Assembly: GCA_944392635.1 (NCBI GenBank)
Contig: CALXXH010000001.1
Span: forward strand, 1-49,410
Source: an uncultured Clostridia bacterium
Lineage (GTDB): Bacteria; Bacillota; Clostridia; TANB77; CAG-508
Direction: 5' to 3'
Length of the DNA stretch: 49,410 nt
The number at the start of each line of letters is the position of its first letter. Position 1 is the first letter of the stretch. The position numbers were made by a program, and so were the translations under genes. This document shows, one piece after another, positions 22,766-47,828 of this stretch. The notes under the pieces are model-generated. The model saw only the letters and a list, made by a program, of their open reading frames with translations, searched no databases and had not been told where the DNA came from.

Positions 22766-22794
22766 ATTATACAGCAATTGGAAATATTTGTCAA
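22766..22794 (-). promoter_or_regulatory. Consensus sigma-A promoter immediately downstream of spmB
   Basis: Minus strand TTGACA (22794-22789), 17 nt, TATAAT (22771-22766). Confidence 0.6.
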
Positions 22795-29353: not shown

Positions 29354-32300
29354 ATGGAAAATATATTACACGTTGGATTGGACGTTGGATCAACAACAGT
29401 AAAAATTATTGTTATGGATGACAACAAAAACACAATATACAAAGACTATCAAAGACATTTTTCAGACACTAAAAATACTGTATGTAGAGTTTTAGAAGAT
29501 TTATTAAAAAAATATCCATATAATTCATTTACACTTGCCCTAACAGGTTCTGGAGCTATGTCAGCTGCAAAATTCTTAGGGGTAAACTTCATACAAGAAG
29601 TTGTTTCTTGTAAAAGAGCAGTTGAAAAATACATACCAAGAACAGATGTAGTAATTGAATTAGGTGGAGAAGATGCAAAAATAATATATTTTGACCAGTC
29701 AATAGAACAACGTATGAATGGTACTTGTGCTGGTGGAACAGGAGCATTTCTAGACCAAATGGCATCACTATTACATACTGACACTGCTGGTCTTAATGAA
29801 CTTGCAAAAGGATATGAAACAATATATCCAATCGCATCTAGATGTGGAGTTTTCGCAAAAACAGATATACAACCATTAATAAATGAAGGTGCTGCAAAAG
29901 AAGATATCGCTGCATCAATTTTCCAAGCAGTTGTTAATCAAACAATCAGTGGCCTTGCTTGTGGTAGACCAATTAGAGGAAATGTAGCATTTTTAGGTGG
30001 TCCTTTAAATTACTTATCAGAACTAAGAAAAAGATTTATTGAAACTTTAAATTTAACACCTGATGAAGTAATTGTACCTGAAGAAGCACATCTACTAGTT
30101 GCAAAAGGTGCTGCATTAGACTCAATAAATTCTAATGTCATAACAACAACTGAATTAGAACAAAAAATAGAGAATCTAAAAAATTCACATGATAATACAA
30201 CTAACCCTCTAGATCCATTATTTAAAAATAAAGAAGAATATCAAGCATTTAAAGAAAGACATGATAAAAACAAAGTAGAAAAAGCAGATTTAACTAATTA
30301 TGAAGGAGACTGCTATTTAGGAATTGATGCTGGTTCTACAACAACAAAAATAGTTTTAATTGATAAAGATGGAAAACTTCTATATTCTTTATATGGAAGT
30401 AATGAAGGTAATCCATTACAAAGTGTTATGAAAATGCTCAAAGAACTTTATTCAGTATTACCTGAAAAAGCAATACTTAGATATAGTGGAGTTACAGGAT
30501 ATGGTGAAAAATTAATACAAACAGCATTAAATGTTGATTTAAATGAAATAGAAACAATTGCACATTATACAGCTGCAAAGACATTTGAACCAGATGTTAC
30601 AAGTATTGTTGACATTGGTGGCCAAGACATGAAATATATTAGAATGAAAAATGGTTCAATTGACAATATAATGCTAAATGAAGCTTGTTCATCAGGTTGT
30701 GGTTCATTTATTGAAACATTTGCTAAAAGCTTAAATCTATCTATCGAAGAATTCGTAAAAGAAGCAATTGAAGCAAAAAGACCAGTTGACCTTGGTTCTC
30801 GTTGTACAGTTTTTATGAATTCTAAAATAAAACAAGCTCAAAAAGAAGGATATTCAGTAGGAGATATTTCAAGTGGTTTATCATATTCTGTTATAAAAAA
30901 TGCTATACAAAAAGTTATGAAAGTAAGAGATGTTGAAACACTAGGAAATCATATAGTTGTACAAGGTGGTACTTTCTATAATGATGCTGTTTTAAGAGCA
31001 TTTGAATTAATAGTTGGAAAAAATGTAGTAAGACCAGATATTGCAGGATTAATGGGTGCATATGGTATGGCTTTACTTTCAAAAGAACAATATGAAGCAA
31101 ACCTAGATATGGAATATAAATCTACAATATTAAAAACAGATGAAATTGATAAACTAGAAATTAAAGTAACACATACACGTTGTAATAACTGTGAAAACCA
31201 TTGTAAACTAACAATTAATAAATTTAGTAATGGACAAATACATGTATCTGGTAACCGTTGTGAAAAAGGTGCAGGAGCTGTTACAAAATCTAAACCATTA
31301 CCTAACTTAATTGCATATAAATATAAAAGATTATTTGACTATACACCATTAGAAGAACAATATGCAACAAGAGGAACAATAGGAATACCAAGAGTATTAA
31401 ACATGTATGAAGATTATCCATTCTGGTTCACATTCTTAACTTCATTAGGTTTTAGAGTAATATTATCTGAAAAAAGTACTCGTAAAACTTATGAAAAAGG
31501 TATGGAATCAATGCCATCTGAGTCAGTTTGCTATCCAGCAAAACTTTCACATGGTCATATAGAAAGCTTACTTGAACAAGGTATTAAAACAATCTTTTAT
31601 CCTTGTATGCCTTATTCAAGAAAAGAATATGAAAAAGCAGACAACCACTACAACTGTCCAATTGTAATTTCATATTCAGAAGTACTAAGAAATAATGTTG
31701 AAGGCTTAAAATCACAAGAAATAAAATTCATTAATCCATTCTTACCTTTTGACAAGAAAAATCTTGTTAAAAAAGTTATGGAATTAGATGAATTTAAAGA
31801 ATATAATTTTACAAAAGCTGAATTAAATGAAGCAGCTGACAAAGCAGAGGCAGAATATCAAAAATGTAAAAAGGATATAAGAGATAAAGGTGCTGAAACA
31901 GTTAGATATATAGAAGAAAACCACCTAAAAGGAATTGTACTTGCAGGAAGACCATATCATGTTGACCCAGAAATAAATCATGGAATTGATACTCTAATCA
32001 CTTCACTTGGACTTTGTGTTTTAACAGAAGATAGTGTGGCAGACAAAACAGAAGCAAAACGTCCAATTCGTGTTGTTGACCAATGGGTATATCATGCAAG
32101 ACTATATGCAGCAGCAGACTTTGTTGGAAAACATGATTGCTTAGAATTAGTACAATTAAATTCATTTGGTTGTGGTGTAGATGCTGTTACAACAGATCAA
32201 GTAGAAGAAATATTATCAAGCTATAACAAAATGTACACACTAATTAAAATAGATGAAGTAAATAACTTAGGGGCAGTAAGAATTCGTATTCGTTCACTAC

Positions 32301-33691
32301 TTGCTAGTATGAAAAAAAGAGAACAAGAAAAGAAACAAGAAAAAGCAGATGGAGATTACGGAATTAAGAAAAAAATCTTTACTAAAGAAATGCGCAAAGA
32401 TTATACAATTTTAATGCCACAAATGGCTCCTATTCACTTTGAATTATTAGAAAGTGCTGTAAAACAATCTGGATATAATATTAAACTATTAAAAAATTGT
32501 ACTCAAAAAACTGTTGAAACAGGTTTAAAGTATGTAAATAATGATGCATGTTATCCATCAATATTAACAACAGGTCAAATGATAGAAGCATTGCAATCTG
32601 GTGAATATGATTTAAATAAAACTGCATTAATCATGTCACAAACAGGTGGTGGTTGTAGGGCAACAAATTATATAGGATTTATACGTAAAGCCTTAAAAGA
32701 TGCTGGATTTGCAAATGTACCTGTAATTTCATTCAACATTGTAGGAATGGAAAAAATGCCAGGATTTAAGATAACTGCACCTTTAATTGAAAGATTATTA
32801 AAAACTGTAATATATGGAGATTTACTTCAAAAAATGTTAACTAAGAATAGAGCATATGAAGTAAATAAAGGTGAAACCCAAAAACTATTTGACACTTGGA
32901 TGGAAAAATGCAAAAAACTATTGCAAAAATCAACAAATAAAGAATTTAAACAAAGTATTTATGATATAGTAAATGACTTTGAAAAAATAGAATTAGATAC
33001 ATCAATAGAAAAACCTCGTGTAGGTATAGTTGGAGAAGTCTTAATTAAATATCACCCATTTGGAAATAACTATGTAGCAGATTTACTTGAACAAGAAGGT
33101 GCAGAAGTTATTCTTCCAGACTTTATGGGATTTGTAAAATTCATGGCAACACATAAAATAACATTTAATAGACTTTTAAATACAAATAAAACATCTTCAA
33201 AACTTATGAAAGTTGCAATAAAATTAATAGACTTATTAGAAAAAGATGTAAAAATAGCACTTGCAAATTCTAAAAAAGGTTACTTACAACCTTGTGATAT
33301 ATGGCACTTAGAAGATAAAGTAAAAGATGTATTGTCAATTGGAAATCAAACAGGAGAAGGATGGTTTTTAACAGCTGAAATGATTAAATATATAGAAAAT
33401 GATATTCCAAACATAGTATGTGTTCAACCATTTGCATGTTTACCTAACCATGTAGTTGGAAAAGGTGTTATAAAAACTATTCGTAGTATGTATCCAGATG
33501 CCAATATATCTCCAGTTGATTACGATCCAGGAGCTAGTGAATCAAATCAAGCAAATAGAATTAAACTATTAATGACTGTTGCAAAAGATAATTTGCAAGC
33601 TAAACAAAATCGTAGAAAAGCAATTGAAAAAGAAAATGAAGATATTAAAGTTGCTGAAAAAAATACAGAAAAAATTACAGCAAAAAATTAA
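29354..33691 (+). CDS. Acyl-CoA dehydratase activase-related giant fusion (two BadF/BcrA/HgdC-type ATPase modules plus DUF2229-like C-terminal half)
   Basis: Two ASKHA ATPase starts, GLDVGSTTVKIIVMD and GIDAGSTTTKIVLID. Cys cluster CNNCENHCKL...GNRCEKG. 1445 aa, as in clostridial homologues. Confidence 0.85.
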   Translation: MENILHVGLDVGSTTVKIIVMDDNKNTIYKDYQRHFSDTKNTVCRVLEDLLKKYPYNSFTLALTGSGAMSAAKFLGVNFIQEVVSCKRAVEKYIPRTDVVIELGGEDAKIIYFDQSIEQRMNGTCAGGTGAFLDQMASLLHTDTAGLNELAKGYETIYPIASRCGVFAKTDIQPLINEGAAKEDIAASIFQAVVNQTISGLACGRPIRGNVAFLGGPLNYLSELRKRFIETLNLTPDEVIVPEEAHLLVAKGAALDSINSNVITTTELEQKIENLKNSHDNTTNPLDPLFKNKEEYQAFKERHDKNKVEKADLTNYEGDCYLGIDAGSTTTKIVLIDKDGKLLYSLYGSNEGNPLQSVMKMLKELYSVLPEKAILRYSGVTGYGEKLIQTALNVDLNEIETIAHYTAAKTFEPDVTSIVDIGGQDMKYIRMKNGSIDNIMLNEACSSGCGSFIETFAKSLNLSIEEFVKEAIEAKRPVDLGSRCTVFMNSKIKQAQKEGYSVGDISSGLSYSVIKNAIQKVMKVRDVETLGNHIVVQGGTFYNDAVLRAFELIVGKNVVRPDIAGLMGAYGMALLSKEQYEANLDMEYKSTILKTDEIDKLEIKVTHTRCNNCENHCKLTINKFSNGQIHVSGNRCEKGAGAVTKSKPLPNLIAYKYKRLFDYTPLEEQYATRGTIGIPRVLNMYEDYPFWFTFLTSLGFRVILSEKSTRKTYEKGMESMPSESVCYPAKLSHGHIESLLEQGIKTIFYPCMPYSRKEYEKADNHYNCPIVISYSEVLRNNVEGLKSQEIKFINPFLPFDKKNLVKKVMELDEFKEYNFTKAELNEAADKAEAEYQKCKKDIRDKGAETVRYIEENHLKGIVLAGRPYHVDPEINHGIDTLITSLGLCVLTEDSVADKTEAKRPIRVVDQWVYHARLYAAADFVGKHDCLELVQLNSFGCGVDAVTTDQVEEILSSYNKMYTLIKIDEVNNLGAVRIRIRSLLASMKKREQEKKQEKADGDYGIKKKIFTKEMRKDYTILMPQMAPIHFELLESAVKQSGYNIKLLKNCTQKTVETGLKYVNNDACYPSILTTGQMIEALQSGEYDLNKTALIMSQTGGGCRATNYIGFIRKALKDAGFANVPVISFNIVGMEKMPGFKITAPLIERLLKTVIYGDLLQKMLTKNRAYEVNKGETQKLFDTWMEKCKKLLQKSTNKEFKQSIYDIVNDFEKIELDTSIEKPRVGIVGEVLIKYHPFGNNYVADLLEQEGAEVILPDFMGFVKFMATHKITFNRLLNTNKTSSKLMKVAIKLIDLLEKDVKIALANSKKGYLQPCDIWHLEDKVKDVLSIGNQTGEGWFLTAEMIKYIENDIPNIVCVQPFACLPNHVVGKGVIKTIRSMYPDANISPVDYDPGASESNQANRIKLLMTVAKDNLQAKQNRRKAIEKENEDIKVAEKNTEKITAKN

Positions 33692-33729
33692 AAAATCATT
33701 TCTTAATTACTGGAATATTTTTTAGAAAT

Positions 33730-33758
33730 TTGACATATAATAAAAAATGAGTTATAAT
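33730..33758 (+). promoter_or_regulatory. Consensus sigma-A promoter of a small RNA
   Basis: TTGACA (33730-33735), 17 nt, TATAAT (33753-33758). Confidence 0.65.
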
Positions 33759-33764
33759 ACTCTC

Positions 33765-33842
33765 AAGACGTCGATAGCAAATCAAGTAAATGATGTAAAA
33801 AAAGACTAGGAGTCTCTCAAAACTTTTCCTAGTCTTTTTCCT
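33765..33842 (+). ncRNA. Candidate ~80-nt antisense/antitoxin RNA (RNA II-like)
   Basis: Runs from the consensus promoter to a strong terminator with no ORF or SD. Segment 33775-33793 is complementary to the start region of the convergent small-ORF mRNA. Confidence 0.5.
33797..33840. terminator. Bidirectional Rho-independent terminator
   Basis: GACTAGGA (33804-33811) pairs with TCCTAGTC (33827-33834), with A7 upstream and T5 downstream. Confidence 0.75.
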
Positions 33843-33848
33843 TTTGGT

Positions 33849-33917
33849 CTAATCCTCTATGTGTTTTACAATTAAGTAAATTAAATAAAGTTTCAACACT
33901 TTTAGCAAATCTTTCAA
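33849..33917 (-). CDS. Candidate Fst-like type I toxin peptide (22 aa)
   Basis: TTG 33917 lies 11 nt after GAAAGGAGG. MKDLLKVLKLYLIYLIVKHIED. Own promoter. The SD can be sequestered by upstream CCUUUC. Confidence 0.35.
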   Translation of the reverse strand: MKDLLKVLKLYLIYLIVKHIED

Positions 33918-33961
33918 GTAAATGACAACCTCCTTTCTACCTTTTGGTGAAAGGTAAATCT

Positions 33962-33990
33962 AATATACAACAAAAGCACTATTTAGTCAA
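33962..33990 (-). promoter_or_regulatory. Sigma-A promoter of the small-ORF mRNA
   Basis: Minus strand TTGACT (33990-33985), 17 nt, TATATT (33967-33962). Confidence 0.6.
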
Positions 33991-34021
33991 TATATATTCA
34001 TAACTTTACTTTTTATTGAAT

Positions 34022-34050
34022 TTGAACATGCTTAAAAAAAATGATATAAT
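34022..34050 (+). promoter_or_regulatory. Promoter of the 34085-35827 operon
   Basis: TTGAAC (34022-34027), 17 nt, TGaTATAAT (hexamer 34045-34050). Confidence 0.6.
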
Positions 34051-34084
34051 ATATATATAATCACATAAGATAGAAGGTGATTTT

Positions 34085-35086
34085 ATGAACTTAAAACAAA
34101 ATAGAAAAAATGCAGCAGAATACCTAAAAGAATATAAAAAATTAATACCAAAAAGAACTTCCCTATTCAGTAAAAATTCTAGTATTGACATTTCTAAAAT
34201 ACATACTATGAAGGAAAAAACTGAGACTTTTTATGAAAGAAAAGTATTAATATCTCCTATGCTAATAGACAAAAATAGCATAAAGGATTATCAAGAAACT
34301 CTTGCATTAATAAAACAATTTCCAAGTGATATGAAACCAGAAACTGTAATAGAGAATAAAATTCTAGAACAAACTAGAAATCCTCAAAAAACAAGAAGAA
34401 TTCTATTACCCAATATCGTAGACAATAATTTAGCGTTAATAGAAGATTATGATAATATGGTTGCATACTATTTATTAATGGACGGAGATTCTCCTGTAGA
34501 AAGATTTGCAAAAACAGAAATGTCTATGAAACAATATGGTGTAAAACCAGATTTAGGCTTATCTATTACGAAATATGGTGATAAAATAACATCAAAATTA
34601 GAAGAATTAGCATCATCTGGAAATAAATCCTCTAAAGAATGGGAATGTTTTAAAAAACAAGTCCTTCACAGTTTTAATACTGCAGAAAAAATAGGAAACT
34701 ATCACGTAAATCCGGAAGAACATTTACTATGGGAAGAAAGATTAGTTAAATTAGGTATACTTGAAAGAAAACTTGATAGGGGAAATAAACAAAAAACATC
34801 CTCTCTTAGAGATAGTATTAAATATGATGTTGATACACCAAAGACAAAAAATGATGAAAATGACAAAAATAGAGGCACTGTTTCTCTAGAAAGTGCTTTA
34901 CAAAAAAATGCAGAACAAATGTATATAAATACCGGAATGATACCTTTAGGTTACAAAAAAGACGAAAACGGAAAATTAGTAAGAATCTTACCAGATAAGA
35001 ATAAAGAAAGAGTAAATCCATTGTCTGCTTCAAGAGAAAATTTATCTGCAACAAAAACTACACAAAAACAAGGATTAAGCCGTTAG
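34085..35086 (+). CDS. Hypothetical soluble protein (333 aa)
   Basis: ORF with a GAAGGTGA SD; Lys-rich termini; no recognisable motif. Confidence 0.65.
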   Translation: MNLKQNRKNAAEYLKEYKKLIPKRTSLFSKNSSIDISKIHTMKEKTETFYERKVLISPMLIDKNSIKDYQETLALIKQFPSDMKPETVIENKILEQTRNPQKTRRILLPNIVDNNLALIEDYDNMVAYYLLMDGDSPVERFAKTEMSMKQYGVKPDLGLSITKYGDKITSKLEELASSGNKSSKEWECFKKQVLHSFNTAEKIGNYHVNPEEHLLWEERLVKLGILERKLDRGNKQKTSSLRDSIKYDVDTPKTKNDENDKNRGTVSLESALQKNAEQMYINTGMIPLGYKKDENGKLVRILPDKNKERVNPLSASRENLSATKTTQKQGLSR

Positions 35087-35912: not shown

Positions 35913-37250
35913 CTACTCTGTACTAAAAGACATTACAAATTCATAATTATCTTTTAATTGCATAATTACATTAACTGTAGTTGTTGTATCATTTTCTCCT
36001 GTAATATCACTAAGTACAATTTCTTGTATATATGTTGAATTTTCATCTCTAAATGTTGTATATTCAACTTCATAATATAATGGAAATTTCTCTCTCATAT
36101 ATTGTTCAAAAGCATCTACTGAACCCCAGTTATTATTTCTAAATGTTTCGTCTAAAACATTATAAGCTGTTTTATAATCTCTATTATTTAACATTTGAAC
36201 CCATTTATCTACATTCATAGCCACTTTATTTTGTTCATCTGCTGAATCATATTCAGCTTTAAATTTGTCTGTTGTTATTGTATAAGTATCTAATAATATT
36301 TTATAATCTAAAGGTCCATATTCTCTAAAAATATATAAGTTATTATACTTATCCATACAAACATATTCACTATATTCATCATAAGAATTTAACAAATATC
36401 TTTGTGGTTGTAAAGATAAAAGGAAATCTCTATTATTATTAATATATTTTTCAAGTTCTTCTAAACTTCCAAATCTTTTATCTCTATATTCTTCATCTAA
36501 ATGATCATATGCTTCCTCTGGATTACTTAAAACTAATTTTTTATAATAATCCATATATTTTCTTGCAACTATTTCTGCATTAGATTGAGCATAATTAATT
36601 ACATTATCTCCATTGCTTTCAATCTCTACCAAACTATTATCTAATAATTCTATATCATCAAGACTATTAATTCTTCCGTTTTGTGGTTCAATTGAAAACG
36701 TCATATTTGTTAAATCAAAATTCACAATAAGATATATATTACTAACAAAATTATAATTAGTATCTGCAATATATCCATATACAGCATATTTATATAAGTT
36801 GTTATCACTTATATATTTCATATCAAGAGGTACAAATAACATCTTTTCTTCAAATTTTTGTACAAAATTTTCTATATTTTCTACAGTTATATTATTTTGT
36901 TCTACATATTCTTTACTTAATAAATTATATATCTTTTCATTCTCATTAACGATTTTTTCTTGTTCATCATTTTCATTATTTGCAAAATATGATGAATTAT
37001 TTTCATTCAAGAAATCTAAATATGCATAAACGCATTGTTCAACTGTATACATTCGTTCTTTTTCCTCTTGCGTAAAAACAACTTCTTCTTCAACTTGCAA
37101 TGATTGTTCTATCTTATTTTCTTCCTGTTCTTGGCTTATTTCTGTAATTATTGTATTATCACTTTTATTTATAACTACAATTACAACAATAAGTATAACT
37201 ATTAAAATAGAAATCAATATAATTAATTTTTTAACTAAACTTTTATTCAT
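35913..37250 (-). CDS. Membrane-anchored extracytoplasmic protein (445 aa), last gene of the T4SS operon
   Basis: N-terminal TM LIILISILIVILIVVIVVI, acidic linker, large Tyr/Asn/Asp-rich ectodomain. Function unknown. Confidence 0.65.
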   Translation of the reverse strand: MNKSLVKKLIILISILIVILIVVIVVINKSDNTIITEISQEQEENKIEQSLQVEEEVVFTQEEKERMYTVEQCVYAYLDFLNENNSSYFANNENDEQEKIVNENEKIYNLLSKEYVEQNNITVENIENFVQKFEEKMLFVPLDMKYISDNNLYKYAVYGYIADTNYNFVSNIYLIVNFDLTNMTFSIEPQNGRINSLDDIELLDNSLVEIESNGDNVINYAQSNAEIVARKYMDYYKKLVLSNPEEAYDHLDEEYRDKRFGSLEELEKYINNNRDFLLSLQPQRYLLNSYDEYSEYVCMDKYNNLYIFREYGPLDYKILLDTYTITTDKFKAEYDSADEQNKVAMNVDKWVQMLNNRDYKTAYNVLDETFRNNNWGSVDAFEQYMREKFPLYYEVEYTTFRDENSTYIQEIVLSDITGENDTTTTVNVIMQLKDNYEFVMSFSTE

Positions 37251-37286
37251 ATCTAATATCCTTCCAATAATATTATATATATTATT

Positions 37287-40200
37287 TTAATTAGTTATTC
37301 TTAAAGCATAACATCCTTTTGATTGTAAAAATCCTACTGTTCTAGTCGCTCCATCATATCCATTTGCCATAGGCTCAACTGCTGGATTCATTACTTCTGG
37401 AACACCTTTTACTTGCACGTTACTTCCTGAAACACTATATACCATTACAACATGGTAATCTGTAGTATATTGAACTATATCACCTGGTTGTAATGCATTC
37501 ATATCTGTAATAAGTTGTACATTTATTCCCATACTTTGGAAATCATTTATAGACAATGATGAATTAGTACGTGCCCATAATTTCTCTGCTCCTGCTGCTT
37601 GAGAATATCCTGCTTGTAACAAACATTCTTGTATAAATGAACTACAAGATAGTGTTCTTAATCCATTATTAGCAATTGGGAAAGTATAGTCTACTGGTCC
37701 AGTATTTCTATATGTGTAATTATTATCAAATAAATATCTTGCAACTGTATCTGCTGCTTGTGTTAATGCTGTTGCTCCACCTGTTGGTTTTTCTAAGTCC
37801 TTAAATTGGTCATAGTACCTCCTTGCAGCTTCTGTTCTAATACTCATTCTAGGAATTCCCGGTTTTTCAAAAACCCAACAAAATGCTATTGCTGCATCTT
37901 CTGGAGTTGTAGCATTTTTCCAATCATCTGGTGAATATCCTTTATAAGTACTTAAGGCATATGTAGCAAATCCATTTGCTCCACCACCTGGTGTTATTTC
38001 TCCTATCAAGAACTCTATTTGAGCATTTTCATCGCTTGGATCTACTCCTTTTGATGTAGCATAACCTTCAAGTTGAGTTCTTCTTCCTCCTGTCCACTGG
38101 CATAAACCAAATCCTGCTCCAGTTGAAGCTTCTACAGTTCCTGCATTAAATCCAGATTCTGCTTCAATATTTCCTAAAACTCCAGCTGCTGCTTCTTTAC
38201 TATATCCAGCATCTATAACAGCCCACCAAACTTTTTCTTGTATACTTCCACCATATAAGCCACTCATACTTGAGAAAGATTCTAAGCTAAATTCACTAAA
38301 ATCATACTCCAAAACTCCAAAAGGTATATCTGTAGCCCTATATATCAAATATTTTGTTAAATTCAATAAATTGGCTGTTCTTTCATTATTTTCAATTATT
38401 GAAAATAAATATCCTGAAGTTCTAACTTTTGATATCATATTATGCTCATTATATAATTCAACAAAAACATTTTCTTTTCCTTCTGTTTTAAAATCTCCAC
38501 TTTCATATGTATTTGTTATAGTTCTAATTTCTGTTCTTATTCTTTCATAAATATCATATTCGTACATTATATCATTTCCGTCTTCATCCTTTTCTCCTGT
38601 AGGTGCACTTCCACTTTCAATAATAGTTTCTCCAGACCAAGAAGTAGTTGATGTGTCTGTAACCTTACCCGGAACATCTACTATTTTTTCCTCGTTATCA
38701 CCTAGACCTATAACAGCTTCACTATAACTATTTTCTTGATATGTCTTTACACACCAAGTACTAACATATGTAAGGTCTACCCTTGTACTAACGTTTTCAA
38801 TTATAGTAGTTGTAGTTGTTTGATCTGCCCAATCAGTTGAAAATTCAGGCTCTGTTGCCACTGTTTTTCGCTGAGGAGTTGTATCTGTCCTTGTTGTTGT
38901 AACAGTGTCTTGAACTGCTATTACAATCTCTGATTCCATAACTTTATCTGCCAAATCTATTGAAAATCCTGCATAATCAGTATCTATGTAGAAGTATAAC
39001 AAATATTCAAATGGCATCATATATTTCTGTAATGCTGTTTTCAAATTCATAGAATTACTTGATTTTAATTCTACACTACCATCTTCCTTAACACTCCAAG
39101 TAACAGTAACTAAATTTCTTTCCTCATCTAATGTATAAGATTTTAATGCATTTTCTGTATCTCCATTATCTATATACCCCTGTAATGTTTCTGGTGCTAC
39201 ATAATGCATACTTATAATTCTTGATTCTACACTGTTTGTATAAGTAGCATCATTTACTGCTGTAGCAGTATATCCACTATGGTCTGCTTTAAAATACTCA
39301 TCAATTCCTTCTACAATTCCTTCTGCGTATTTTTCTACTCCATCTCCAGATATAATATCTGCATCTGGATCCCCATCTAAGAAACCTCCTTCTGTAACAA
39401 CTGATGGGAAACCAGTAATTCCAGCACTTTCTATAATTCCTAGACTTCCAACAGCACATTTTTCTGTATCTGGACCAGCTTGTCTATTTGTTAATCCCAT
39501 AGAAGTTGAAATTGAATTAGACAAGATTTCAGCAAGTTGTTGTGAAATTCCATCTTCTTCTTTATATATAACTTCAACTCCTGTACCTCCACCTGAATTA
39601 AAATGTATTTGTATACACAAATCAGGATCAGCATTTTTAGCCAATGTTGTTCTATCTCCTACTTGTATACCTCCAGGATTATCAGTTGTACTTCCTGTTT
39701 GCACTACTTCAATATTTGAATAATCATCTAATAAATCTTCTACTTTTTCTGCTACCTCTATTGTAAGCTCTTCTTCAACTAAATCTCCACTAACAGCTCC
39801 TGTATCATTTGTATTATTATGTCCAGCTGCAATGGCAACTACATATTCTTCTCCTTCTTTTCCTATAATATTATCACTATTATTACTTCCAGCTCTAGAA
39901 GTAACGGCTACCTTTGTTCTATTTTCTTCATTTGTTAATTCACTACTTTCATTACTTACCTCTTCAACTTTAGTTAGCTCTACTCTACCAGAAAGATTAC
40001 CATTTTTTACATTCAAATAAATAGTAGTATCTCCTGTTAGATCATTTGTTTCTGTTTCATAATCTCCTGCATATGTAACTATATCTCCTGCTTCTGCTTG
40101 TAAGATTAAAACATCTTCTAACAATCTCAATTGTTTTCCAGAATTCCAACTTTTTATAGTATCTTCATTAATATTAGATGAAGAAGAATTTTTACTTTCA

Positions 40201-41072
40201 TCAACTGCAAAAACAGATATTAACTTAACAAATCCAACTGTTCCATCTTGTTTTTTCACTTCTACATATACAGTCGTATTACCAGTTAAAGCATTCTCAT
40301 CCAATTCATATTTGCCTGTATAAGTAACTCTCTCATCTTTTTCTACATATATTTTATTTCCATTATCGTCATATTTTTCCTGCCAATATCCAGTATCTCT
40401 CAATTCCTCATACATTGGAGTTCTAGTAACAACATATAATTGTTCTCCTTCACTCCAACTACTTATTCTATTTTGATCATTTCTATCTGTAATTTCTACA
40501 GTATCCATAGCAGACTCTTGCTCCAAACTAGATGTTTCACCTTTACCTGTATTTTTCATTTCTCCAATATCTTTATTAGGTGTAACTCTCCTTATTCTCA
40601 CTGCTCCTTGGAATCCATCTGTAGAACTTGCCGGAACTGTACCTCCTAAATCAGGAAATTGAGTATAAAGCTCTGCTTTTATCATTTTCTTTAAAAAATC
40701 TGTATTATTATCAGGAAGGTTATGCGTTCCAGCTTTTGAATTTATTTCTGCAACTAAATCTTCTAGTTTATCATCTACATCATCTACAAAATCTAAATAA
40801 TATCCATTTGTTTCGTCACCTTTAATTTGAACTAGCTCTGCAACATCTTCTATTTCCAAATAATCATAAATTTTTTGTGGTGTATCTCTTGCTGTAAATA
40901 GTTCTACTACCCAGTCAAGAACAGTTGCTCCTATTAATAATGGAATAAGTAACTTTAAAAGTATTAACAATACTGGTTTTAAAGCCATCATTATTGTTTG
41001 CTTAACCGTCTTTTTTTCTTTACTTTTTGCTTTTTCTTTTTGACTATTTTTAAAATTATTTATCAGTCCCAA
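37287..41072 (-). CDS. Conjugation-associated cell-wall hydrolase with three lytic domains (amidase_3, lysozyme-like, NlpC/P60-CHAP-like)
   Basis: TM near the N-terminus and two SH3-like repeats (SSWSEGEQLYVV.. / KSWNSGKQLRLL..). Amidase_3 core AIAAGHNNTNDTGA...IQIHFNSGGGTGVEVIY. GVLGNIEAESGFN...GFGLCQWTGGRR lysozyme-like domain. C-terminal LSCSSFIQECLLQAGY...YHVVMVY Cys-His peptidase. Probable TTG start at 41072, because GTG 41078 abuts the SD. Confidence 0.85.
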   Translation of the reverse strand: MGLINNFKNSQKEKAKSKEKKTVKQTIMMALKPVLLILLKLLIPLLIGATVLDWVVELFTARDTPQKIYDYLEIEDVAELVQIKGDETNGYYLDFVDDVDDKLEDLVAEINSKAGTHNLPDNNTDFLKKMIKAELYTQFPDLGGTVPASSTDGFQGAVRIRRVTPNKDIGEMKNTGKGETSSLEQESAMDTVEITDRNDQNRISSWSEGEQLYVVTRTPMYEELRDTGYWQEKYDDNGNKIYVEKDERVTYTGKYELDENALTGNTTVYVEVKKQDGTVGFVKLISVFAVDESKNSSSSNINEDTIKSWNSGKQLRLLEDVLILQAEAGDIVTYAGDYETETNDLTGDTTIYLNVKNGNLSGRVELTKVEEVSNESSELTNEENRTKVAVTSRAGSNNSDNIIGKEGEEYVVAIAAGHNNTNDTGAVSGDLVEEELTIEVAEKVEDLLDDYSNIEVVQTGSTTDNPGGIQVGDRTTLAKNADPDLCIQIHFNSGGGTGVEVIYKEEDGISQQLAEILSNSISTSMGLTNRQAGPDTEKCAVGSLGIIESAGITGFPSVVTEGGFLDGDPDADIISGDGVEKYAEGIVEGIDEYFKADHSGYTATAVNDATYTNSVESRIISMHYVAPETLQGYIDNGDTENALKSYTLDEERNLVTVTWSVKEDGSVELKSSNSMNLKTALQKYMMPFEYLLYFYIDTDYAGFSIDLADKVMESEIVIAVQDTVTTTRTDTTPQRKTVATEPEFSTDWADQTTTTTIIENVSTRVDLTYVSTWCVKTYQENSYSEAVIGLGDNEEKIVDVPGKVTDTSTTSWSGETIIESGSAPTGEKDEDGNDIMYEYDIYERIRTEIRTITNTYESGDFKTEGKENVFVELYNEHNMISKVRTSGYLFSIIENNERTANLLNLTKYLIYRATDIPFGVLEYDFSEFSLESFSSMSGLYGGSIQEKVWWAVIDAGYSKEAAAGVLGNIEAESGFNAGTVEASTGAGFGLCQWTGGRRTQLEGYATSKGVDPSDENAQIEFLIGEITPGGGANGFATYALSTYKGYSPDDWKNATTPEDAAIAFCWVFEKPGIPRMSIRTEAARRYYDQFKDLEKPTGGATALTQAADTVARYLFDNNYTYRNTGPVDYTFPIANNGLRTLSCSSFIQECLLQAGYSQAAGAEKLWARTNSSLSINDFQSMGINVQLITDMNALQPGDIVQYTTDYHVVMVYSVSGSNVQVKGVPEVMNPAVEPMANGYDGATRTVGFLQSKGCYALRITN

Positions 41073-41105
41073 ATACACTCACCTCTTTTCCATTTATAAC
41101 TTATT

Positions 41106-42050
41106 TTATATTTGAACTTCAAATGTATCACCTGTTATATTACTATCATTACTATATTCACTAGCATTTACTATATCTTCAAAGTGTATACTTTGTATTT
41201 CCATTAGTTCCCTATATGAATCACTAAATTTAATTTTAATAGTTTTAGATTCTTGTGAAAAAAACTGTAAATCTTCTTCATTATTTTCATATAAAACTGC
41301 TTCAAACTTATTTCCTAGATTATCCTCAACATAACATGTATTTGTTTTTCTTCTTGTATCTAGTATTATATCTTCATCAGTTTTATTCTTTATTCTTAAA
41401 GTATAAATCTCATAATCTATATATTTATCTACTGCTCCTACTTCTACAGATAATCTATCATCTTCACTTTTTTGATTTATTACCTCTGTACCGATATAAC
41501 TATTAACATTTAATTTATAACTTCCTCCATCAGGTACAATTGTTGCAAAATCTTCTACATAATCATCATCAGTTTTTCCTGTACTAAGCATATTATCAAA
41601 AATTCTTACTTGATATATATATATATCATTTGAAATAGTCCAAGCTTGAAATGAAAATTGCTTATTTCCTTCGAATTTATCCTTATAATACAATTCCTCA
41701 AATAACTCCTCAGTTTGATACATTATTCTTTTTATATCATCACTTAACATATCATAAGCTCTTTGTGGCTCATGATTTACACAATATGTATAAAACTGAT
41801 CTATAATTTGAGCTAAATCTTCACTATATTTACTTGATACATTACTACCTGAAATAATAGATTGGCTCTCATTACTATAAGAAACAACATTAGATGTTGT
41901 TTCTTCATTATTCATATTTTCTTGTGTTTGATTAGCTTCTTTCAAAGCATTATTTACAACCTGTAACATTAGCCAACCTAATATTATAGCTAAAACTATC
42001 GCCCATACTTTTAATTTATTTTGATTATAGAATCTCCACAATTTATGCAT
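41106..42050 (-). CDS. Bitopic membrane protein (314 aa), VirB8/TcpC-like scaffold candidate by position only
   Basis: N-terminal TM VWAIVLAIILGWLMLQVV followed by an extracytoplasmic domain. Located between the VirB6-like gene and the hydrolase. Confidence 0.6.
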   Translation of the reverse strand: MHKLWRFYNQNKLKVWAIVLAIILGWLMLQVVNNALKEANQTQENMNNEETTSNVVSYSNESQSIISGSNVSSKYSEDLAQIIDQFYTYCVNHEPQRAYDMLSDDIKRIMYQTEELFEELYYKDKFEGNKQFSFQAWTISNDIYIYQVRIFDNMLSTGKTDDDYVEDFATIVPDGGSYKLNVNSYIGTEVINQKSEDDRLSVEVGAVDKYIDYEIYTLRIKNKTDEDIILDTRRKTNTCYVEDNLGNKFEAVLYENNEEDLQFFSQESKTIKIKFSDSYRELMEIQSIHFEDIVNASEYSNDSNITGDTFEVQI

Positions 42051-42094
42051 ATCAATTCCTCTTTCTACATAAATACCTAAAATATTTTAGTTTT

Positions 42095-44665
42095 CTAACC
42101 TCTTCTTGGTCTTCCTCTACCTCTTGGTGGATTTATAGCATGTCTTCTTCCCATCTCTTTCATTCCCAAAGCTTCTGTATAGAAATTCCATACATCATTT
42201 TGATTTCTTTCACCTGAAACATTTGCTTTTATTAACTCTTGCATACTATTACGTTTTTTATCATCAATTACATAATCTTTTCCATAATCTTTTGTAAGAT
42301 TTACAATGTCTATCATTTTTTCATGATTATTTCCACTTACTCCACCATGTTTTGCTTCCATAGTCAACCCTGTTTCTATTTGTTTTTCATCTGTAATTCC
42401 TGCTTTTTGATAATCAAAACTTGCTGCCATTAAATCTTCTGCCTTTATATTATTATTTCCTGTTTCTTGAGCTATTCTTCCTGCCATCTGTTCATATTTA
42501 GCTTGTTCATCTTTATTTCTCATAAATCTAGCTTTTTCTCTTTCATTTACTCTATTTGCTGCTTGTTGTGTTGCATAAGCTGCTCCATACATATCTTTAT
42601 CTCTGTTATACCTATATTCTTCAAGTTTATCTTCAGCAGAATCTCTAGTTCTTACAGCAAGACCAGCAACTCCTTCAGGCACATTTCCTGCTGCTTTTCC
42701 TATAGTATTTCCTGCTATTGCACCTGCACCAGCATAAGTTAAAGCTTTTGAGAAATCTCCTGAAGCAACACCAGCTGCTAAACCTACAGTTGCACCTGTT
42801 GCAATTCCTAAACCTCTAGCCGCAAGCTTAGCTCCTTTTAATCCATATTTGGCACCTTTTTTAGCTCCTCTTATTACTCTTTTCTTTGCATAGTCTAGTC
42901 TTCCTGCTCTTTGTGGAATATTTAAATTTTGAGTTTCTTCTTGATCTTGAGTTTGATTTTGTCCATCTCCTTGATCTTGTTGAGGAGTATTTTGATTAAA
43001 TCCTAATAAAGCCCTATCTTCATCACTTAAATCTTCCATGTTTATTTGACCATCTGCAATTTGTTCTTCTAAAGCCTCTCTTCTTGCTTGTCTTACAGGA
43101 TCAAAATCATCTCCTCCTCTGTTAGAATCATTTTCTTCACTATCTTGTCCTGTATATCCTTGTGTATTTACACCAGTATTTGCTCCATTACTTCCATCAT
43201 CACTTCCATCACCAGTTCCATTATTTCCAGCAAATGCTCCTAATAATCCTCTATCTTGTGTTCTTACTCTAGGAGATGTAGAACCTGATGCATCTCCACC
43301 AGCACTACTACCTCCTCCAGATTTAGTTTTTCCTTTACCTAGTAAAGATGCTACTTGTTTTACACCAGACATTGCTAAAGCTCCTCCAGCAAAAGTTCCA
43401 AATCCACTTGTTGTATCTGCCTTATCAAATCCAAACATTTTCTTAATAAATTTTTCTGCTGGTATTAAAAATCCTATTGCAACTAATGCATATATCATAT
43501 TTTGTTCAACTAAATCCATAGCAGAAGAAACTAATGCTGTATATAATATTAAATGTACTGGCTGTAAAATAGCATTCATCGTGTACTCTTTAAACCAGAC
43601 ATTAAATGCTTGTGCTTTTCCATCTCCTGCTCTATCAATAGGATATGTTAAAGCTACTAATGGTGCTATCATTGTAAAAAATGCCATATATAAAAATCTT
43701 TTAAAATACATAAATGTAAATATACAAGTATAAATAACTAATGCTAAATAAATAATTGAATAAGCTGCTGTAGTAGATACTGTACTTGATTGAGCATTAA
43801 ATCTAGCATATCCTATTAAATTTGTTCTAAATTTAACTTCATCACTAGTACCTGCATTAGCTGTAATTGTAATTCCATCATCTATAGTTTGAGCAAATAA
43901 ATCTGTAAATCGATCTGTAATCATTAATATACCTGACATAATAAAATGTATTACAAAAACCAAACATAGTGCAACCACCCAATCTTGTAGGGATTCTTTA
44001 TATTTTGCCTTATCAACAGATGTAGAACTAATTAAAATTCTAATTCCTAAATAAACTAATACTGATAAAAGACCAACTATAGCTATATTTCTAAATGATC
44101 TATACCATGTTGCTATCGTACTACGCAAAGTACTTCCTGCAGCTGACTGTGCAGCTTCTATAGCCTCATCTCTATCACTGACTGCTTCATAATTATTAGG
44201 TCTTAAAAAATTAACATCTAATGCTGCTATATTATTTGCAAATATATTTTCTGGTGAATATAGCATATTAGGAATTTCAAATTTTTCACCTACAATAAAT
44301 GAAAAAATATTATTTGTATTTATTTCTCCTTCATCATATGAAACATCCGTAGTTTCATCATCTGGAACATACAACCATGAAGCTTCATTATCTAAATTCT
44401 GGTTATCGAGTGATAGCATCGCCGAACCAAATCCATTTGCTCCCAGCATAAAGTGGTTCAAAGCACTCATTACTATGTCACCTAATTGAACAATTAAATT
44501 CAATAACTCCTTAAGTAATGTACCTATAAGACCACCTTGGTCTGGATCACTTTCTGCTGCATAAACTGAACTATAATTTGGTGCTATTGAAAATATCAAA
44601 ACCAATGCTATTAACATTACTATTATAATCTTCTGTAACAAGTTCTTTTTGGTTAAAAACTCCAT
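42095..44665 (-). CDS. VirB6/TcpH/ConG-like polytopic T4SS channel protein with long low-complexity C-terminal half
   Basis: Signal-anchor plus about 6-8 TM helices in residues ~180-420. Immediately downstream of virB4. C-terminal ~410 aa are Gly/Asp/Asn/Gln-rich and end in RGRGRPRRG. Confidence 0.7.
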   Translation of the reverse strand: MEFLTKKNLLQKIIIVMLIALVLIFSIAPNYSSVYAAESDPDQGGLIGTLLKELLNLIVQLGDIVMSALNHFMLGANGFGSAMLSLDNQNLDNEASWLYVPDDETTDVSYDEGEINTNNIFSFIVGEKFEIPNMLYSPENIFANNIAALDVNFLRPNNYEAVSDRDEAIEAAQSAAGSTLRSTIATWYRSFRNIAIVGLLSVLVYLGIRILISSTSVDKAKYKESLQDWVVALCLVFVIHFIMSGILMITDRFTDLFAQTIDDGITITANAGTSDEVKFRTNLIGYARFNAQSSTVSTTAAYSIIYLALVIYTCIFTFMYFKRFLYMAFFTMIAPLVALTYPIDRAGDGKAQAFNVWFKEYTMNAILQPVHLILYTALVSSAMDLVEQNMIYALVAIGFLIPAEKFIKKMFGFDKADTTSGFGTFAGGALAMSGVKQVASLLGKGKTKSGGGSSAGGDASGSTSPRVRTQDRGLLGAFAGNNGTGDGSDDGSNGANTGVNTQGYTGQDSEENDSNRGGDDFDPVRQARREALEEQIADGQINMEDLSDEDRALLGFNQNTPQQDQGDGQNQTQDQEETQNLNIPQRAGRLDYAKKRVIRGAKKGAKYGLKGAKLAARGLGIATGATVGLAAGVASGDFSKALTYAGAGAIAGNTIGKAAGNVPEGVAGLAVRTRDSAEDKLEEYRYNRDKDMYGAAYATQQAANRVNEREKARFMRNKDEQAKYEQMAGRIAQETGNNNIKAEDLMAASFDYQKAGITDEKQIETGLTMEAKHGGVSGNNHEKMIDIVNLTKDYGKDYVIDDKKRNSMQELIKANVSGERNQNDVWNFYTEALGMKEMGRRHAINPPRGRGRPRRG

Positions 44666-44680
44666 TTTTTCCTCCTAAAA

Positions 44681-46651
44681 TTAAATAGTACCAGCTGTCT
44701 TTCTCATTTTCACTAATTTATTTAAGTTTGTTTCAACAAATTCAAATTCCTTAGCAGTAGGAGTTATTTGTATAATAGCTGTATCAGCTCCTACTTTTAA
44801 TAATCCCTCTCCTTTTAAACAAGTAATTAGGAAATTTGCTTCTCCATCACTTAGTTTAAATACTTTTTTCAAGTATTCTATTTCTGATTTATCTTGAGCT
44901 AAAAATAATTTTGTATCTGATGATGTCAAAACTGCTTGAGCCTCTGGTTTCTCATAAAAGTCTTGGAACCTTTGAGAAACAATAGCCAATGATACATTTC
45001 TTTTTCTCGCACGTCTTGCCATTGTATTTAAGAAATCTACGGCTTCTGGATATGGTAACAACATCCATGCCTCATCTACCAAAACTCTTTTTTGTTTTGC
45101 TTTTGTTCTATCTTCACTATTTTTCTTTACATATTTTTCCCAAATCCAAGAAAGTAGTATTTGTTGAGCAAGTGGTCTTGCAAATCTTTCTTCCAATTGA
45201 GAAATATCCAAATTTATAAATGGTGCTCCATCTAATAATTCAAACGTAGATTGTCCATCGAAATATGCCATTTGTCCATTATACTCTCTTATATATTGTC
45301 TCATAACTTTAAGTAAATAACTAAAATGGAATTGGTAATTTGGATCTTTATTATCTTTAGCTTTTTGTTCTATTCTTCTATACCAACTACCTATTGTTGG
45401 CATATCTTTTTTCTCATGATATAATCTATCTCCTCTTTGGAAAGTACCTCCTGCCTTATATAAACTAGAAGGATCATTTGTTATTCCTATTGCTTTATAC
45501 TCTTCTGCAACAGATTCTGCAATTACCTGTTTTGTTAATTCATTAACTTCCTTACTTCTTGTACTTCCTCTTGCCATTGTAAGTAACGCTTGTGTAACAT
45601 CTTCTACTTTATTTTCCACATTTAAAACAATTCTTTCTCTTCCTGTTATTTCATCTTTTATTGTTTCTGGTTCTATATCAAATAAATTAATTACAGTTTT
45701 TGAATTTGGACTTAATGTAACATTAATTCCCCCTAAGCTTTCTGCAACTATTTGATACTCTCCTTCAGCATCTAATGCTAAACTCTCAATTCCCATTAAT
45801 ATAGCAGATCTTGAAATTAATGTTTTCATAGTTACTGATTTACCTGCTCCAGATTTTGCAAATATAACCATATTATAATTTGTTAAAGAAGGATGGAAAT
45901 TATCAAACAATATAGGTGTTCCTGTTTGTTTATTAAATCCAAGTGGTATTCCCGTAGGATGTCCCACCTCAGAAGTAGTAAATGGAAATACTGTTCCCAT
46001 AGATCTACTATCAAAAGAATGTTTTTTCTTTATCTTGTCATCCATTAAAGGTAAATTAGATTTAAATGCATCTTCTTGTATTGCCCATGCACTCTTTATA
46101 CCTACTAATGATTTTGACATCTCTGTTGATAATAACTTTGTTAATCTATCTAAATCATCCAAACTATATGAAAATAATGTAGCAATAATTGATGCATCAT
46201 ACATCTTATTAAATCCTGCTGCTATTTCATCTCTTAATTGTTCTGCCTCAAATCTTTTTTGTGTTAATGTACTTTCTCTATTTATATTTCCTCTGTCTGC
46301 TGCAACAATTCTTTCTGTTTCCAATTCATTTATTACTTTATTTAATTCATTTTGTGATCTTGCTTCAGCAATTGGTGTTATATATATTGATGTATTTACA
46401 TCTCCAAAGAAGTATAAATCTCTAAATAATTCTGGAAATGTACACATACGTGGTAATGTTGAGATAAAAAAGCTTCTTGCATATCTTTTTACATTAGAAA
46501 TTATTTCTAAATGATCTATCTTCGATGCATCAATTCCAGAAGGTGCAATTAACTCTTTAATAGTCTTTTTCTTTAAAACTCCTGGTTCTTCTTGTCTAAG
46601 CATTTGTTGTTTTCTTTTTTCTTCCTCTAGTTTCTTTTTTGACTTTCTCAT
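44681..46651 (-). CDS. virB4: VirB4-family T4SS ATPase
   Basis: Walker A AKSGAGKSVT, Walker B RVLVDEAW. N-terminal FISTLPRMCTFPELF... domain typical of Gram-positive VirB4 (TcpF/PrgJ/Orf16 type). Confidence 0.9.
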   Translation of the reverse strand: MRKSKKKLEEEKRKQQMLRQEEPGVLKKKTIKELIAPSGIDASKIDHLEIISNVKRYARSFFISTLPRMCTFPELFRDLYFFGDVNTSIYITPIAEARSQNELNKVINELETERIVAADRGNINRESTLTQKRFEAEQLRDEIAAGFNKMYDASIIATLFSYSLDDLDRLTKLLSTEMSKSLVGIKSAWAIQEDAFKSNLPLMDDKIKKKHSFDSRSMGTVFPFTTSEVGHPTGIPLGFNKQTGTPILFDNFHPSLTNYNMVIFAKSGAGKSVTMKTLISRSAILMGIESLALDAEGEYQIVAESLGGINVTLSPNSKTVINLFDIEPETIKDEITGRERIVLNVENKVEDVTQALLTMARGSTRSKEVNELTKQVIAESVAEEYKAIGITNDPSSLYKAGGTFQRGDRLYHEKKDMPTIGSWYRRIEQKAKDNKDPNYQFHFSYLLKVMRQYIREYNGQMAYFDGQSTFELLDGAPFINLDISQLEERFARPLAQQILLSWIWEKYVKKNSEDRTKAKQKRVLVDEAWMLLPYPEAVDFLNTMARRARKRNVSLAIVSQRFQDFYEKPEAQAVLTSSDTKLFLAQDKSEIEYLKKVFKLSDGEANFLITCLKGEGLLKVGADTAIIQITPTAKEFEFVETNLNKLVKMRKTAGTI

Positions 46652-47828
46652 TGTTATTGTCCTCTCCTTCCTCTTTTGAATTTTCTAACTCATTTATAGC
46701 CTCAACTGCTACATCTGGTCCAATATAATTTCTATTATCCCCTATAATTATTTCAGCCATTTGTTTAATTAAATCTTCTAAATCTCCTTCTTTTTGTTCA
46801 GCTTTTTGTTGCGCCTTTGATTTTACTTTATCAACAGTTTGATTTGCCAAATCTACTGCTCTATCATGAACTACTTGATCTAATGCCTTTATTTTCTTTT
46901 CAAATACATCTGGTGCTGTAGAATATAAATCATCATATCCAGCCCTCATAGCTTTATCAATTCCAAATGTTTCGGATTCATCTCTGTTATATGCTACATA
47001 TAATAACTCAATTAATTCTTTTGAAGATAATATCTTACCACTAATAGAACATGCTGACAAAGTTCTAATTATAGATTGTGCCTTTGTATATAATTCTGAA
47101 AAAGCCATATTCCTAATTTCTTCTATTCCATATTTTCCTTCGTCTGTATTTTCTTCTGCATAATAAGAAATAATAATATAATATTTTTTATTTAACACAC
47201 TTTTATTTAAACTCATTTTTTCTGTATCTTGGACAATATCTCTTCCATATTCAAGCATATTTCTTTGCTTTGTAAGTTCAAATAAGTATCTATCTAATTC
47301 TTCTTGTGTATATTCTTCAGAATTTTTCATATTATTATATTCAAACATCATTCTTCTATATCTTTCTTCAATCTCATTAACTCTAGATTTATAATTTGAT
47401 ATACTACCTTCCAAATTAATTGTTCTAGTTTGAATATATATTTGAATTGGATGTCTTAGTGTATTTAAAAATTGTTGGAATCCTTCTTCAACAGCTACCT
47501 TTTCCATATTAGACATTAAGTCATAATTTACTCCTTGACATTCAACAACCATTAAATATCTTTTCCCTTTTCTTTGAACAATCATATTGTCTTCAACTTT
47601 ATCAAAATCCATAAAATCCATTATTGATTGTTTTGTATATGAATTACTGATAGTACTTTCATTATTCAATTTCTTATCATTTTGTTTTAATTTATCTTTT
47701 TTTCCTTGCTTATTAGATGATGATTCCCTTGTTTTTAACACTAAAAACACAACAACAAGAATCATTAATATAAAAAACATTACTCCTAAAACTATTATCA
47801 AAGCATTTGATATAACATCCTCACTCAT
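46596..47828 (-). CDS. T4SS-associated membrane-anchored protein (410 aa), unknown role
   Basis: N-terminal TM ALIIVLGVMFFILMILVVVFLVL and a cytoplasmic alpha/beta-looking domain. 56-nt overlap with virB4, whose SD GGAGAGGA lies inside this gene. Confidence 0.65.
   Translation of the reverse strand: MSEDVISNALIIVLGVMFFILMILVVVFLVLKTRESSSNKQGKKDKLKQNDKKLNNESTISNSYTKQSIMDFMDFDKVEDNMIVQRKGKRYLMVVECQGVNYDLMSNMEKVAVEEGFQQFLNTLRHPIQIYIQTRTINLEGSISNYKSRVNEIEERYRRMMFEYNNMKNSEEYTQEELDRYLFELTKQRNMLEYGRDIVQDTEKMSLNKSVLNKKYYIIISYYAEENTDEGKYGIEEIRNMAFSELYTKAQSIIRTLSACSISGKILSSKELIELLYVAYNRDESETFGIDKAMRAGYDDLYSTAPDVFEKKIKALDQVVHDRAVDLANQTVDKVKSKAQQKAEQKEGDLEDLIKQMAEIIIGDNRNYIGPDVAVEAINELENSKEEGEDNNNEKVKKETRGRKKKTTNA

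Follow-up and report, generated by a model that had tools for sequence, protein, structure and literature searches.

A candidate par-like type I toxin-antitoxin locus and its relatives in uncultured gut Clostridia

An intergenic gap of about 260 bases in the genome of an uncultured gut Clostridia bacterium was analysed here as a candidate type I toxin-antitoxin (TA) module, in which a small RNA and a short peptide mRNA would be transcribed towards each other into one terminator. The gap lies in a stretch of 49 kb with a G+C content of 27% from a gut metagenome, the whole of which stretch is referred to as the window, and the region 33700-34000 was inspected on both strands. The plus strand carries the promoter of the putative small (antitoxin-like) RNA, TTGACA-17-TATAAT (33730..33758), which matches the consensus at 12/12 positions. 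Perfect matches of this kind number two in the 49 kb window, compared with 0.05 expected from shuffled sequences, and the only other one is located at 22766-22794 on the minus strand. The promoter of the putative peptide mRNA, TTGACT-17-TATATT, is on the minus strand (33990-33962) and matches the consensus at 10/12 positions. Between the two promoters stands a bidirectional intrinsic terminator (33799..33839) that both transcripts would share, consisting of a 13-bp stem (arms 33799-33811 and 33827-33839, a perfect inverted repeat), a 15-nt loop, an A-run upstream and a T-run downstream; the terminator scanner used was limited to 8-nt loops, which was the sole reason why this hairpin went undetected by it. 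Both promoters and the terminator were found where an initial annotation of this DNA had placed them, and the promoter-to-terminator layout it proposed also stood, with the correction that the -10 box of the small-RNA promoter is about 40 nt and not 45 nt away from the terminator.

Judging from the promoter and the T-run, the small RNA would be ~80 nt long (33765..33845, plus strand) and would consist of a ~35-nt 5' targeting part and the terminator hairpin. The open reading frame (ORF) list contains no ORF starting inside it, in line with the earlier description of an RNA without coding content. The convergent peptide mRNA, the ends of which were likewise placed by consensus motifs, would be ~160 nt long (33797..33955, minus strand), and the 3' overlap of the two predicted RNAs is fully complementary over about 45-50 nt. 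The first 24 nt of the mRNA (33932..33955) are predicted to form a 5'-terminal leader hairpin (CCUUUC-ACC-AAAA-GGU-A-GAAAGG), in which CCUUUC pairs with the GAAAGG of the Shine-Dalgarno (SD) sequence GAAAGGAGG (33929..33937, minus strand) and 6/9 SD bases are sequestered; this pairing, already suggested in the initial annotation, is the predicted minimum-free-energy structure. The mRNA continues with the candidate toxin ORF of 22 codons (33849..33917, minus strand), which starts with TTG, encodes MKDLLKVLKLYLIYLIVKHIED and appears in the ORF list as previously reported.

The translation start region of this ORF and the 5' part of the small RNA share a direct repeat. Copy 1, the putative targeting segment of the small RNA (TAGCAAATC|AAGTAAATGA), was located at 33775..33793 on the plus strand, and copy 2, the predicted binding site on the mRNA, at 33903..33925 on the minus strand. 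The copies share exact blocks of 9 and 12 nt (one base being common to both blocks) with a 4-nt insertion between them, as had been described. On the mRNA, copy 2 extends over the 8 nt that precede the start codon UUG, over its first two bases and over codons 3-5, and G and AAA are bulged out of the predicted small RNA/mRNA duplex. The energy calculated for the window duplex (5' part of the small RNA with the start region of the mRNA) was -23.5 kcal/mol; dinucleotide shuffles gave a mean of -11.9 (sd 2.6), and 0/500 of them reached the observed value, which upholds the complementarity across the start codon and codons 3-5 claimed for this locus. An apparent second binding site of the small RNA inside the ORF (33870-33889, an 80% repeat of 33780-33799) is not conserved in the related locus L006 and was set aside.

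Copies of the locus identical to that of the window were present on two other contigs, and eight further distinct loci of the same anatomy were identified in gut metagenome and IMG/VR contigs. One of these, L006, was found via relatives of the 333-aa protein encoded next to the locus and lies at the same genomic junction as in the window, where the orthologue of the neighbouring activase shows 91% amino-acid identity, the 333-aa neighbour 74%, and the locus DNA is 72% identical. L006 keeps both promoters, its terminator stem has changed in a compensatory manner (from GACTAGGA/TCCTAGTC in the window to GACCATGA/TCATGGTC), and its ORF again has 22 codons and a TTG start (MKQFIKLLALYIIYLIVKHFDD). 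The repeat of L006 differs from that of the window, yet its own copies match each other (TAGCAATT..ATAAAT.GTTTCAAAGAAC in both). Between the window and L006 the leader was conserved best, and the exact search pattern was the leader 23-mer CCTTTCTACCTTTTGG(T/C)GAAAGG, which retrieved seven distinct loci beyond L006, namely L025 (= L026) and L027 in IMG/VR and L034, L036 (= L039, L042, L043, L044), L037, L040 and L041 among the metagenome contigs. Other patterns searched in viral contigs added no members: the coding-region 19-mer TTTACAATTAAGTAAATTA gave chance matches inside genes only, the 5' end of the small RNA gave no match, and a relaxed leader loop returned only L025-L027 again. Two hits to the leader were rejected as family members. 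The match in L038 lies inside a G+C-rich coding region, and that in L035 is upstream of a pilin-like gene; the leader-like 23-mer and SD (L035 11195-11217) precede a prepilin-like ORF with neither a convergent small RNA nor a repeat, and the leader motif may occur outside the module here or may represent a chance match.

The anatomy of the locus is conserved throughout. The small-RNA promoter TTGACA-17-TAnnAT is present at the equivalent place in 9/9 loci, mostly with an extended -10 (TGn), as are the convergent promoter TTGACa-17-TAtatT and an SD of the form GGAGG or GGGGG, and a 9-bp leader hairpin is predicted for every locus. The predicted small RNAs measure 70-85 nt, with the first ~35 nt followed by the terminator stem. 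This stem is perfect, 9-15 bp long and starts 31-37 nt from the predicted start of the small RNA, and its sequence differs between loci; among the four loci of the 22-aa group, 3/12 stem pairs have both bases replaced, and the core stays paired throughout. According to their peptides the loci fall into groups of 22 aa (the window, L006, L034 MKDFVDLLKLIIVYYIIKYLSK and L036 MKDLFDVLKLLLIYYIVKHLSK), 29 aa (L037 MLFKYILKIITIVSDIILLVIDFIEDMHK, L041 and L040) and 28 aa (L025 MSSFDLIWRLIVLLLLSNSNDENQENKE and L027). The 22- and 29-aa groups have a single bidirectional terminator. The 28-aa group has two separate back-to-back terminators, the RNAs are predicted to pair through the repeat alone, and the repeat is located in the loop of a hairpin at the 5' end of the small RNA. 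YUNR-type motifs (UUUG, UUGA or UUGG), which are short and common, occur in the terminator loop of 4/4 loci encoding 22-aa peptides and in none of the 29-aa group. The 5' end of the small RNA carries an 8-nt palindrome in six loci (L006 at ~750-760, L034, L036, L040, L037 and L041), which reads GCAATTGC in four of them and GCTTAAGC in two; the change is symmetric and keeps the palindrome, the window has GCAAATC at this place, and the element may serve as an operator where transcription starts or as a self-pairing element of the RNA.

The sequence of the repeat differs in the eight related loci, and its two copies change together, by which the repeat that the initial annotation had relied on proved to be conserved as a pair. 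Across all 81 combinations of small RNAs and mRNA start regions from the 9 loci, cognate duplexes had a mean of -27.0 kcal/mol and non-cognate duplexes of -13.0 (sd 4.0). The cognate partner ranked first in every row and column with the exception of the near-identical L037/L041, and the cognate duplex covered the start codon in 9/9 loci. When shuffles were run for each locus, 0/500 reached the observed energy in 8/9 loci and 2/500 did so in L036, and upon permutation of partners the observed mean was reached in only 2/200,000 random re-pairings. RNA-RNA pairing is hence kept by locus-specific co-variation of the repeat copies, and because the eight related loci keep this pairing while their sequences change, we regard the locus as a member of a real, previously unannotated family.

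The ORFs are under coding selection. The differences at codon positions 1/2/3 were 54/15/64 in the 22-aa group, 24/6/22 in the 29-aa group and 11/4/14 in the 28-aa group, i.e., position 2 changes least, and the proportion of synonymous differences (pS) exceeded that of nonsynonymous differences (pN) in 3/3 groups (pS 0.27 and pN 0.085, pS 0.16 and pN 0.066, and pS 0.40 and pN 0.06, respectively). ORF length and stop position are conserved inside each peptide group. L036 carries ATG at the codon equivalent to the TTG start of the window, which supports the start assignment. The peptides are hydrophobic, with a score of 2.4-2.9 for the best 11 residues on the Kyte-Doolittle scale (Fst 2.9, TisB 3.0). 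Gly, Cys and Pro are absent from 9/9 peptides; Trp is absent from the 22-aa and 29-aa peptides and, in the 28-aa group, is found N-terminal to the hydrophobic run. An exact look-up of the nine peptides in a collection of 15 billion proteins returned one 29-aa peptide, which carries no name there, and none of the others.

The arrangement closely resembles that of par loci, which have been described as combining convergent promoters with a bidirectional terminator common to both RNAs, with direct repeats over the translation start and with a 5' stem-loop on the SD (Weaver 2020, PMC7472228). All four of these structural features were found here by prediction, in agreement with the par-like layout and antisense logic proposed in the initial annotation, and the general mark of type I systems, a gene for a small hydrophobic peptide together with a cis-encoded RNA complementary to its mRNA, is likewise present. 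Like the par locus of pAD1 from Enterococcus faecalis (RNA I/Fst and RNA II) and the par-like Fst/RNAII loci of Firmicutes, the window locus has convergent promoters and a shared terminator that would give complementary 3' stem-loops, a direct-repeat pair that confers complementarity to the translation initiation region outside this overlap, a 5' stem-loop over the SD, repeats that are poorly conserved between loci and a peptide with a Lys-Asp N-terminus. Within the par family, the repeats DRa/DRb are similarly poorly conserved between loci and are presumed to be the source of cognate specificity, and not every par homologue has a YUNR U-turn motif (PMC7472228). We therefore consider it probable that the locus is a par-like type I TA module, its toxicity and regulation being proposed by analogy with par.

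If so, the mRNA starting at ~33955 on the minus strand would be translated into a 22-residue hydrophobic or amphipathic peptide at a low rate, the 5'-terminal hairpin hiding most of the SD and probably also protecting the 5' end. The convergent RNA, starting at ~33765 from its perfect consensus promoter, could pair with the mRNA at two places, namely through the complementary 3' terminator stem-loops and through the 19-nt interrupted duplex that the repeat makes over the start codon and codons 3-5. The latter duplex is expected to keep ribosomes from binding and might lead to cleavage. Upon a fall in the level of the small RNA, the presumably more stable mRNA would be translated and the peptide would, by analogy with par, harm the membrane, and the result would be stabilisation of the DNA segment that carries the module or a role in stress or phage defence.

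Membership in known families was examined at the level of both RNA and protein. Searches against Rfam gave no family for the whole window at gathering thresholds, and for 33600-34150 at E<=10 only chance-level eukaryotic or viral families. Seven peptides searched against Pfam and NCBIfam at E<=10 gave no match, including to PF13955 (Fst_toxin), NF033608, PF13939 and TIGR04459. As positive controls, Fst of pAD1 matched PF13955 and NF033608, and TisB matched PF13939 and TIGR04459; since the controls matched their own profiles, the negative profile result is considered meaningful. The Fst/Ldr signature (a conserved Trp before the charged tail and a P/D/S/T-xxx-G(C) motif) was absent from the nine peptides. 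The kinship with Fst entertained in the initial annotation was thus not borne out, nor was the comparison with Fst/Ldr-family models that it had proposed successful for the peptides submitted to it, and in view of the missing profile match and signature the shared MKD start counts for little. Neither the locus nor its homologue L025 nor the leader alone had a meaningful blastn match in phage and plasmid collections, and literature searches retrieved no description of such a family. The loci are accordingly described as a new family within a known kind, which would work like par and does not demonstrably belong to the Fst/Ldr superfamily.

Unlike in pAD1 par, the window peptide has 22 aa (Fst 33 aa) and lacks a Trp, a PxxxG motif, a long acidic tail and a profile match, the antisense RNA has no Rfam family, the 28-aa subgroup uses two separate terminators, and the loci belong to uncultured low-G+C Clostridia. 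SprA1/SprA1AS (PepA1) of Staphylococcus aureus and Fst-Sm/srSm of Streptococcus mutans share with the present loci an antisense RNA that overlaps the 3' end of the mRNA and represses, or here would repress, at the 5' start; for Fst/RNAII and SprA1, action at the 5' start region outside the overlap has been described (PMC8594479). The PepA1 and Fst-Sm toxins are small membrane peptides of the Fst superfamily (PMC7472228, PMC8594479), whereas the peptides found here fall outside this superfamily by all tests run and show no detected sequence relation to them. The C. difficile modules (CD2517.1-RCd8, CD2907.1-RCd9, CD0956.2-RCd10 and others) consist of convergent genes, are often located in prophages and encode toxins without homology elsewhere, which are 34-59 aa long with a Lys-rich C-terminus, and pairing is via the overlapping transcripts (PMC6563280). 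The clostridial host class, the convergent toxin and antisense genes, the occurrence in prophages and the lack of homology of the peptides to other families are common to both, whereas the peptides described here are 22-29 aa long, pairing is made by direct repeats and no sequence relation was found.

Very short type I toxins are known from E. coli, i.e., Ibs with 18-19 aa and TisB with 29 aa, the latter having a hydrophobic helix broken by few charged residues. The present peptides are of comparable size and also contain hydrophobic stretches with few charged residues, whereas the layouts differ (Sib is fully overlapping and IstR-1 divergent), the E. coli systems have Gram-negative hosts and no match to the TisB profiles was obtained.

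With respect to genomic context, the locus lies between a gene for a coenzyme A (CoA)-enzyme-activase-type protein (BcrAD_BadFG/DUF2229, 1445 aa; 29354-33691, plus strand) and a gene for a 333-aa protein without a Pfam domain (34085-35086, plus strand), which is followed further downstream by genes for a DnaJ-domain protein, a large amidase/lysozyme protein and a TraG/VirB4-like ATPase. The closest module-free relatives (L045-L048), whose activase gene is 87% identical at the nucleotide level, have a different, simple terminator behind this gene and the DnaJ-domain gene directly thereafter, and they lack the 333-aa gene as well as the module. Copies of the 333-aa gene without the module were found in L003/L004 and L007-L009, where homology to the window begins at ~34019. 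Because the closest relatives lack it at this site, the module, which would occupy at most 33692-34018, is regarded on this comparison as a small accessory insertion between the activase and DnaJ-domain genes. A tie to the conjugative element, at whose transition to housekeeping genes the initial annotation had placed the locus, is not supported, and a reading in which the element ends at the 333-aa gene and includes the module was dropped on these comparisons. No other terminator is present between the activase stop codon (33691) and the locus hairpin, so that read-through transcripts of the activase gene would include the antitoxin sequence within the 3' untranslated region.

Elsewhere, the 22-aa member L034 has the opposite orientation and is separated by 1.8 kb from the orthologous activase gene upstream of it, L027 adjoins a large serine recombinase, L025 adjoins a CI/LexA-type repressor in a viral contig, L042 adjoins an insertion sequence (IS), and L037 and L040 sit between ordinary chromosomal genes. 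Such a patchy, mobile-element-prone distribution is typical of TA modules. A first scan of genome contigs with the 333-aa protein found nothing, and an alignment-based scan of genome contigs covered 15 loci from Clostridia metagenome-assembled genomes (MAGs), with the module in 0/15.

Several observations weigh against a par-like TA module. There is no match among the known toxin or antitoxin-RNA families tested, the leader hairpin is barely more stable than shuffled sequences (z -1.5 to -1.9), the window ORF starts with TTG rather far from the SD (11 nt), and the transcript ends were placed from consensus motifs. That the leader is invariant is due in part to ascertainment, as the leader served as the search pattern, and the unbiased comparison is that of the window with L006. 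Compared with a textbook type I toxin, the 22-aa peptide is atypical: hydrophobic residues follow one another without interruption over a length of only ~8-11, Lys and Asp stand inside its N-terminal half, and it has no long charged tail.

Alternatively, the locus may encode a small membrane or regulatory peptide controlled by an antisense RNA and having a physiological role, e.g., in membrane-protein modulation, with no addiction or killing involved. Besides the want of a full-length transmembrane segment or known toxin signature, the ordinary chromosomal contexts of several members, beside gdpP, a PBP gene and an AMP-binding enzyme gene, would suit such a role. The presence of the module in close relatives is, however, patchy, members are found at the ends of prophages and beside an IS, and the peptides are about as hydrophobic as Fst and TisB; furthermore, the predicted double repression by an SD hairpin and a strongly promoted antisense RNA, together with locus-specific pairing, is a hallmark of toxin control. 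A physiological peptide is accordingly thought possible and rather unlikely.

The observations can also be read jointly in a more speculative way, which we rate as doubtful. In this scenario, the invariant 27-nt leader (GCCUUUC-NCC-AAAA-GGU-A-GAAAGGAGG) and the small-RNA scaffold would form a portable regulatory cassette that has been joined to at least three unrelated mini-ORFs (22, 28 and 29 aa), with a novel peptide mechanism and a leader toggle. As the 22-aa peptides lack a full membrane-spanning segment, they might act unlike classical pore or membrane toxins, e.g., as amphipathic phage-defence effectors, and the AAAA loop and duplicated AAAGG could let the leader toggle between SD-blocked and SD-open folds.

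Descent of the peptide from Fst as a very divergent true Fst/Ldr homologue, for which the MKD start might be a hint, is considered very improbable. The architecture is identical to that of par, and a charged N-terminus, with which the N-terminal Lys-Asp agrees, has been described as important in Fst (PMC7472228). Nonetheless, the two Fst profiles that recognized the Fst control found nothing in our peptides even at E<=10, the 22-aa peptide, against 33 aa in Fst, has neither a Trp before a charged tail nor the P/D/S/T-xxx-G motif, and Rfam returned no antitoxin family. Chance juxtaposition in AT-rich intergenic DNA, with the hairpin being the terminator of the activase gene, the promoters spurious and the ORF meaningless, would accord with the low G+C content of the window, with 16 promoter-like sites in 1.8 kb (10.5 expected) and with the position of the hairpin as first terminator after the activase stop codon, and is effectively refuted by the comparative data, given that the arrangement recurs in 8 loci in unrelated contexts with co-varying repeats, compensatory stems and coding-type substitutions, and that module-free relatives end the activase gene with a different, simple terminator.

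Taken as candidate par-like TA modules, the nine loci are of interest in that type I modules are largely invisible to genome annotation and that few of them have been reported in Clostridia outside C. difficile (PMC6563280). The family is recognisable by its 23-nt leader motif, is carried on chromosomes and in prophages of uncultured gut Clostridia, and comprises, with 22 aa, some of the shortest candidate toxins. General understanding of type I systems is unchanged by it; the nine loci nevertheless constitute a natural experiment in which pairing has been kept and sequence has changed, and they illustrate the evolution of cognate specificity.

Some further observations concern the neighbouring genes. 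The activase gene is one ORF of 1445 codons in the window and two overlapping genes (942 aa and 505-507 aa) in the relatives L045 (189-4518) and L049 (189-4524), which reflects either a fusion in the window or a frameshift or mis-call in the relatives. The conjugation-type gene block at 35913-47828 on the minus strand encodes a 1263-aa protein with Amidase_3 and Phage_lysozyme2 domains, an ATPase with TraG P-loop/AAA_10 domains and several large proteins without a Pfam match. The 333-aa protein has about 70 relatives. Its gene may be present or absent upstream of the DnaJ-domain gene, is found in many unrelated contexts in MAGs of uncultured Clostridia (immediately behind a tRNA gene in L022 and L023), in every case follows a conserved promoter, TTGAC-N17-TGnTATAAT (L003-L024), and looks like a mobile or accessory gene.

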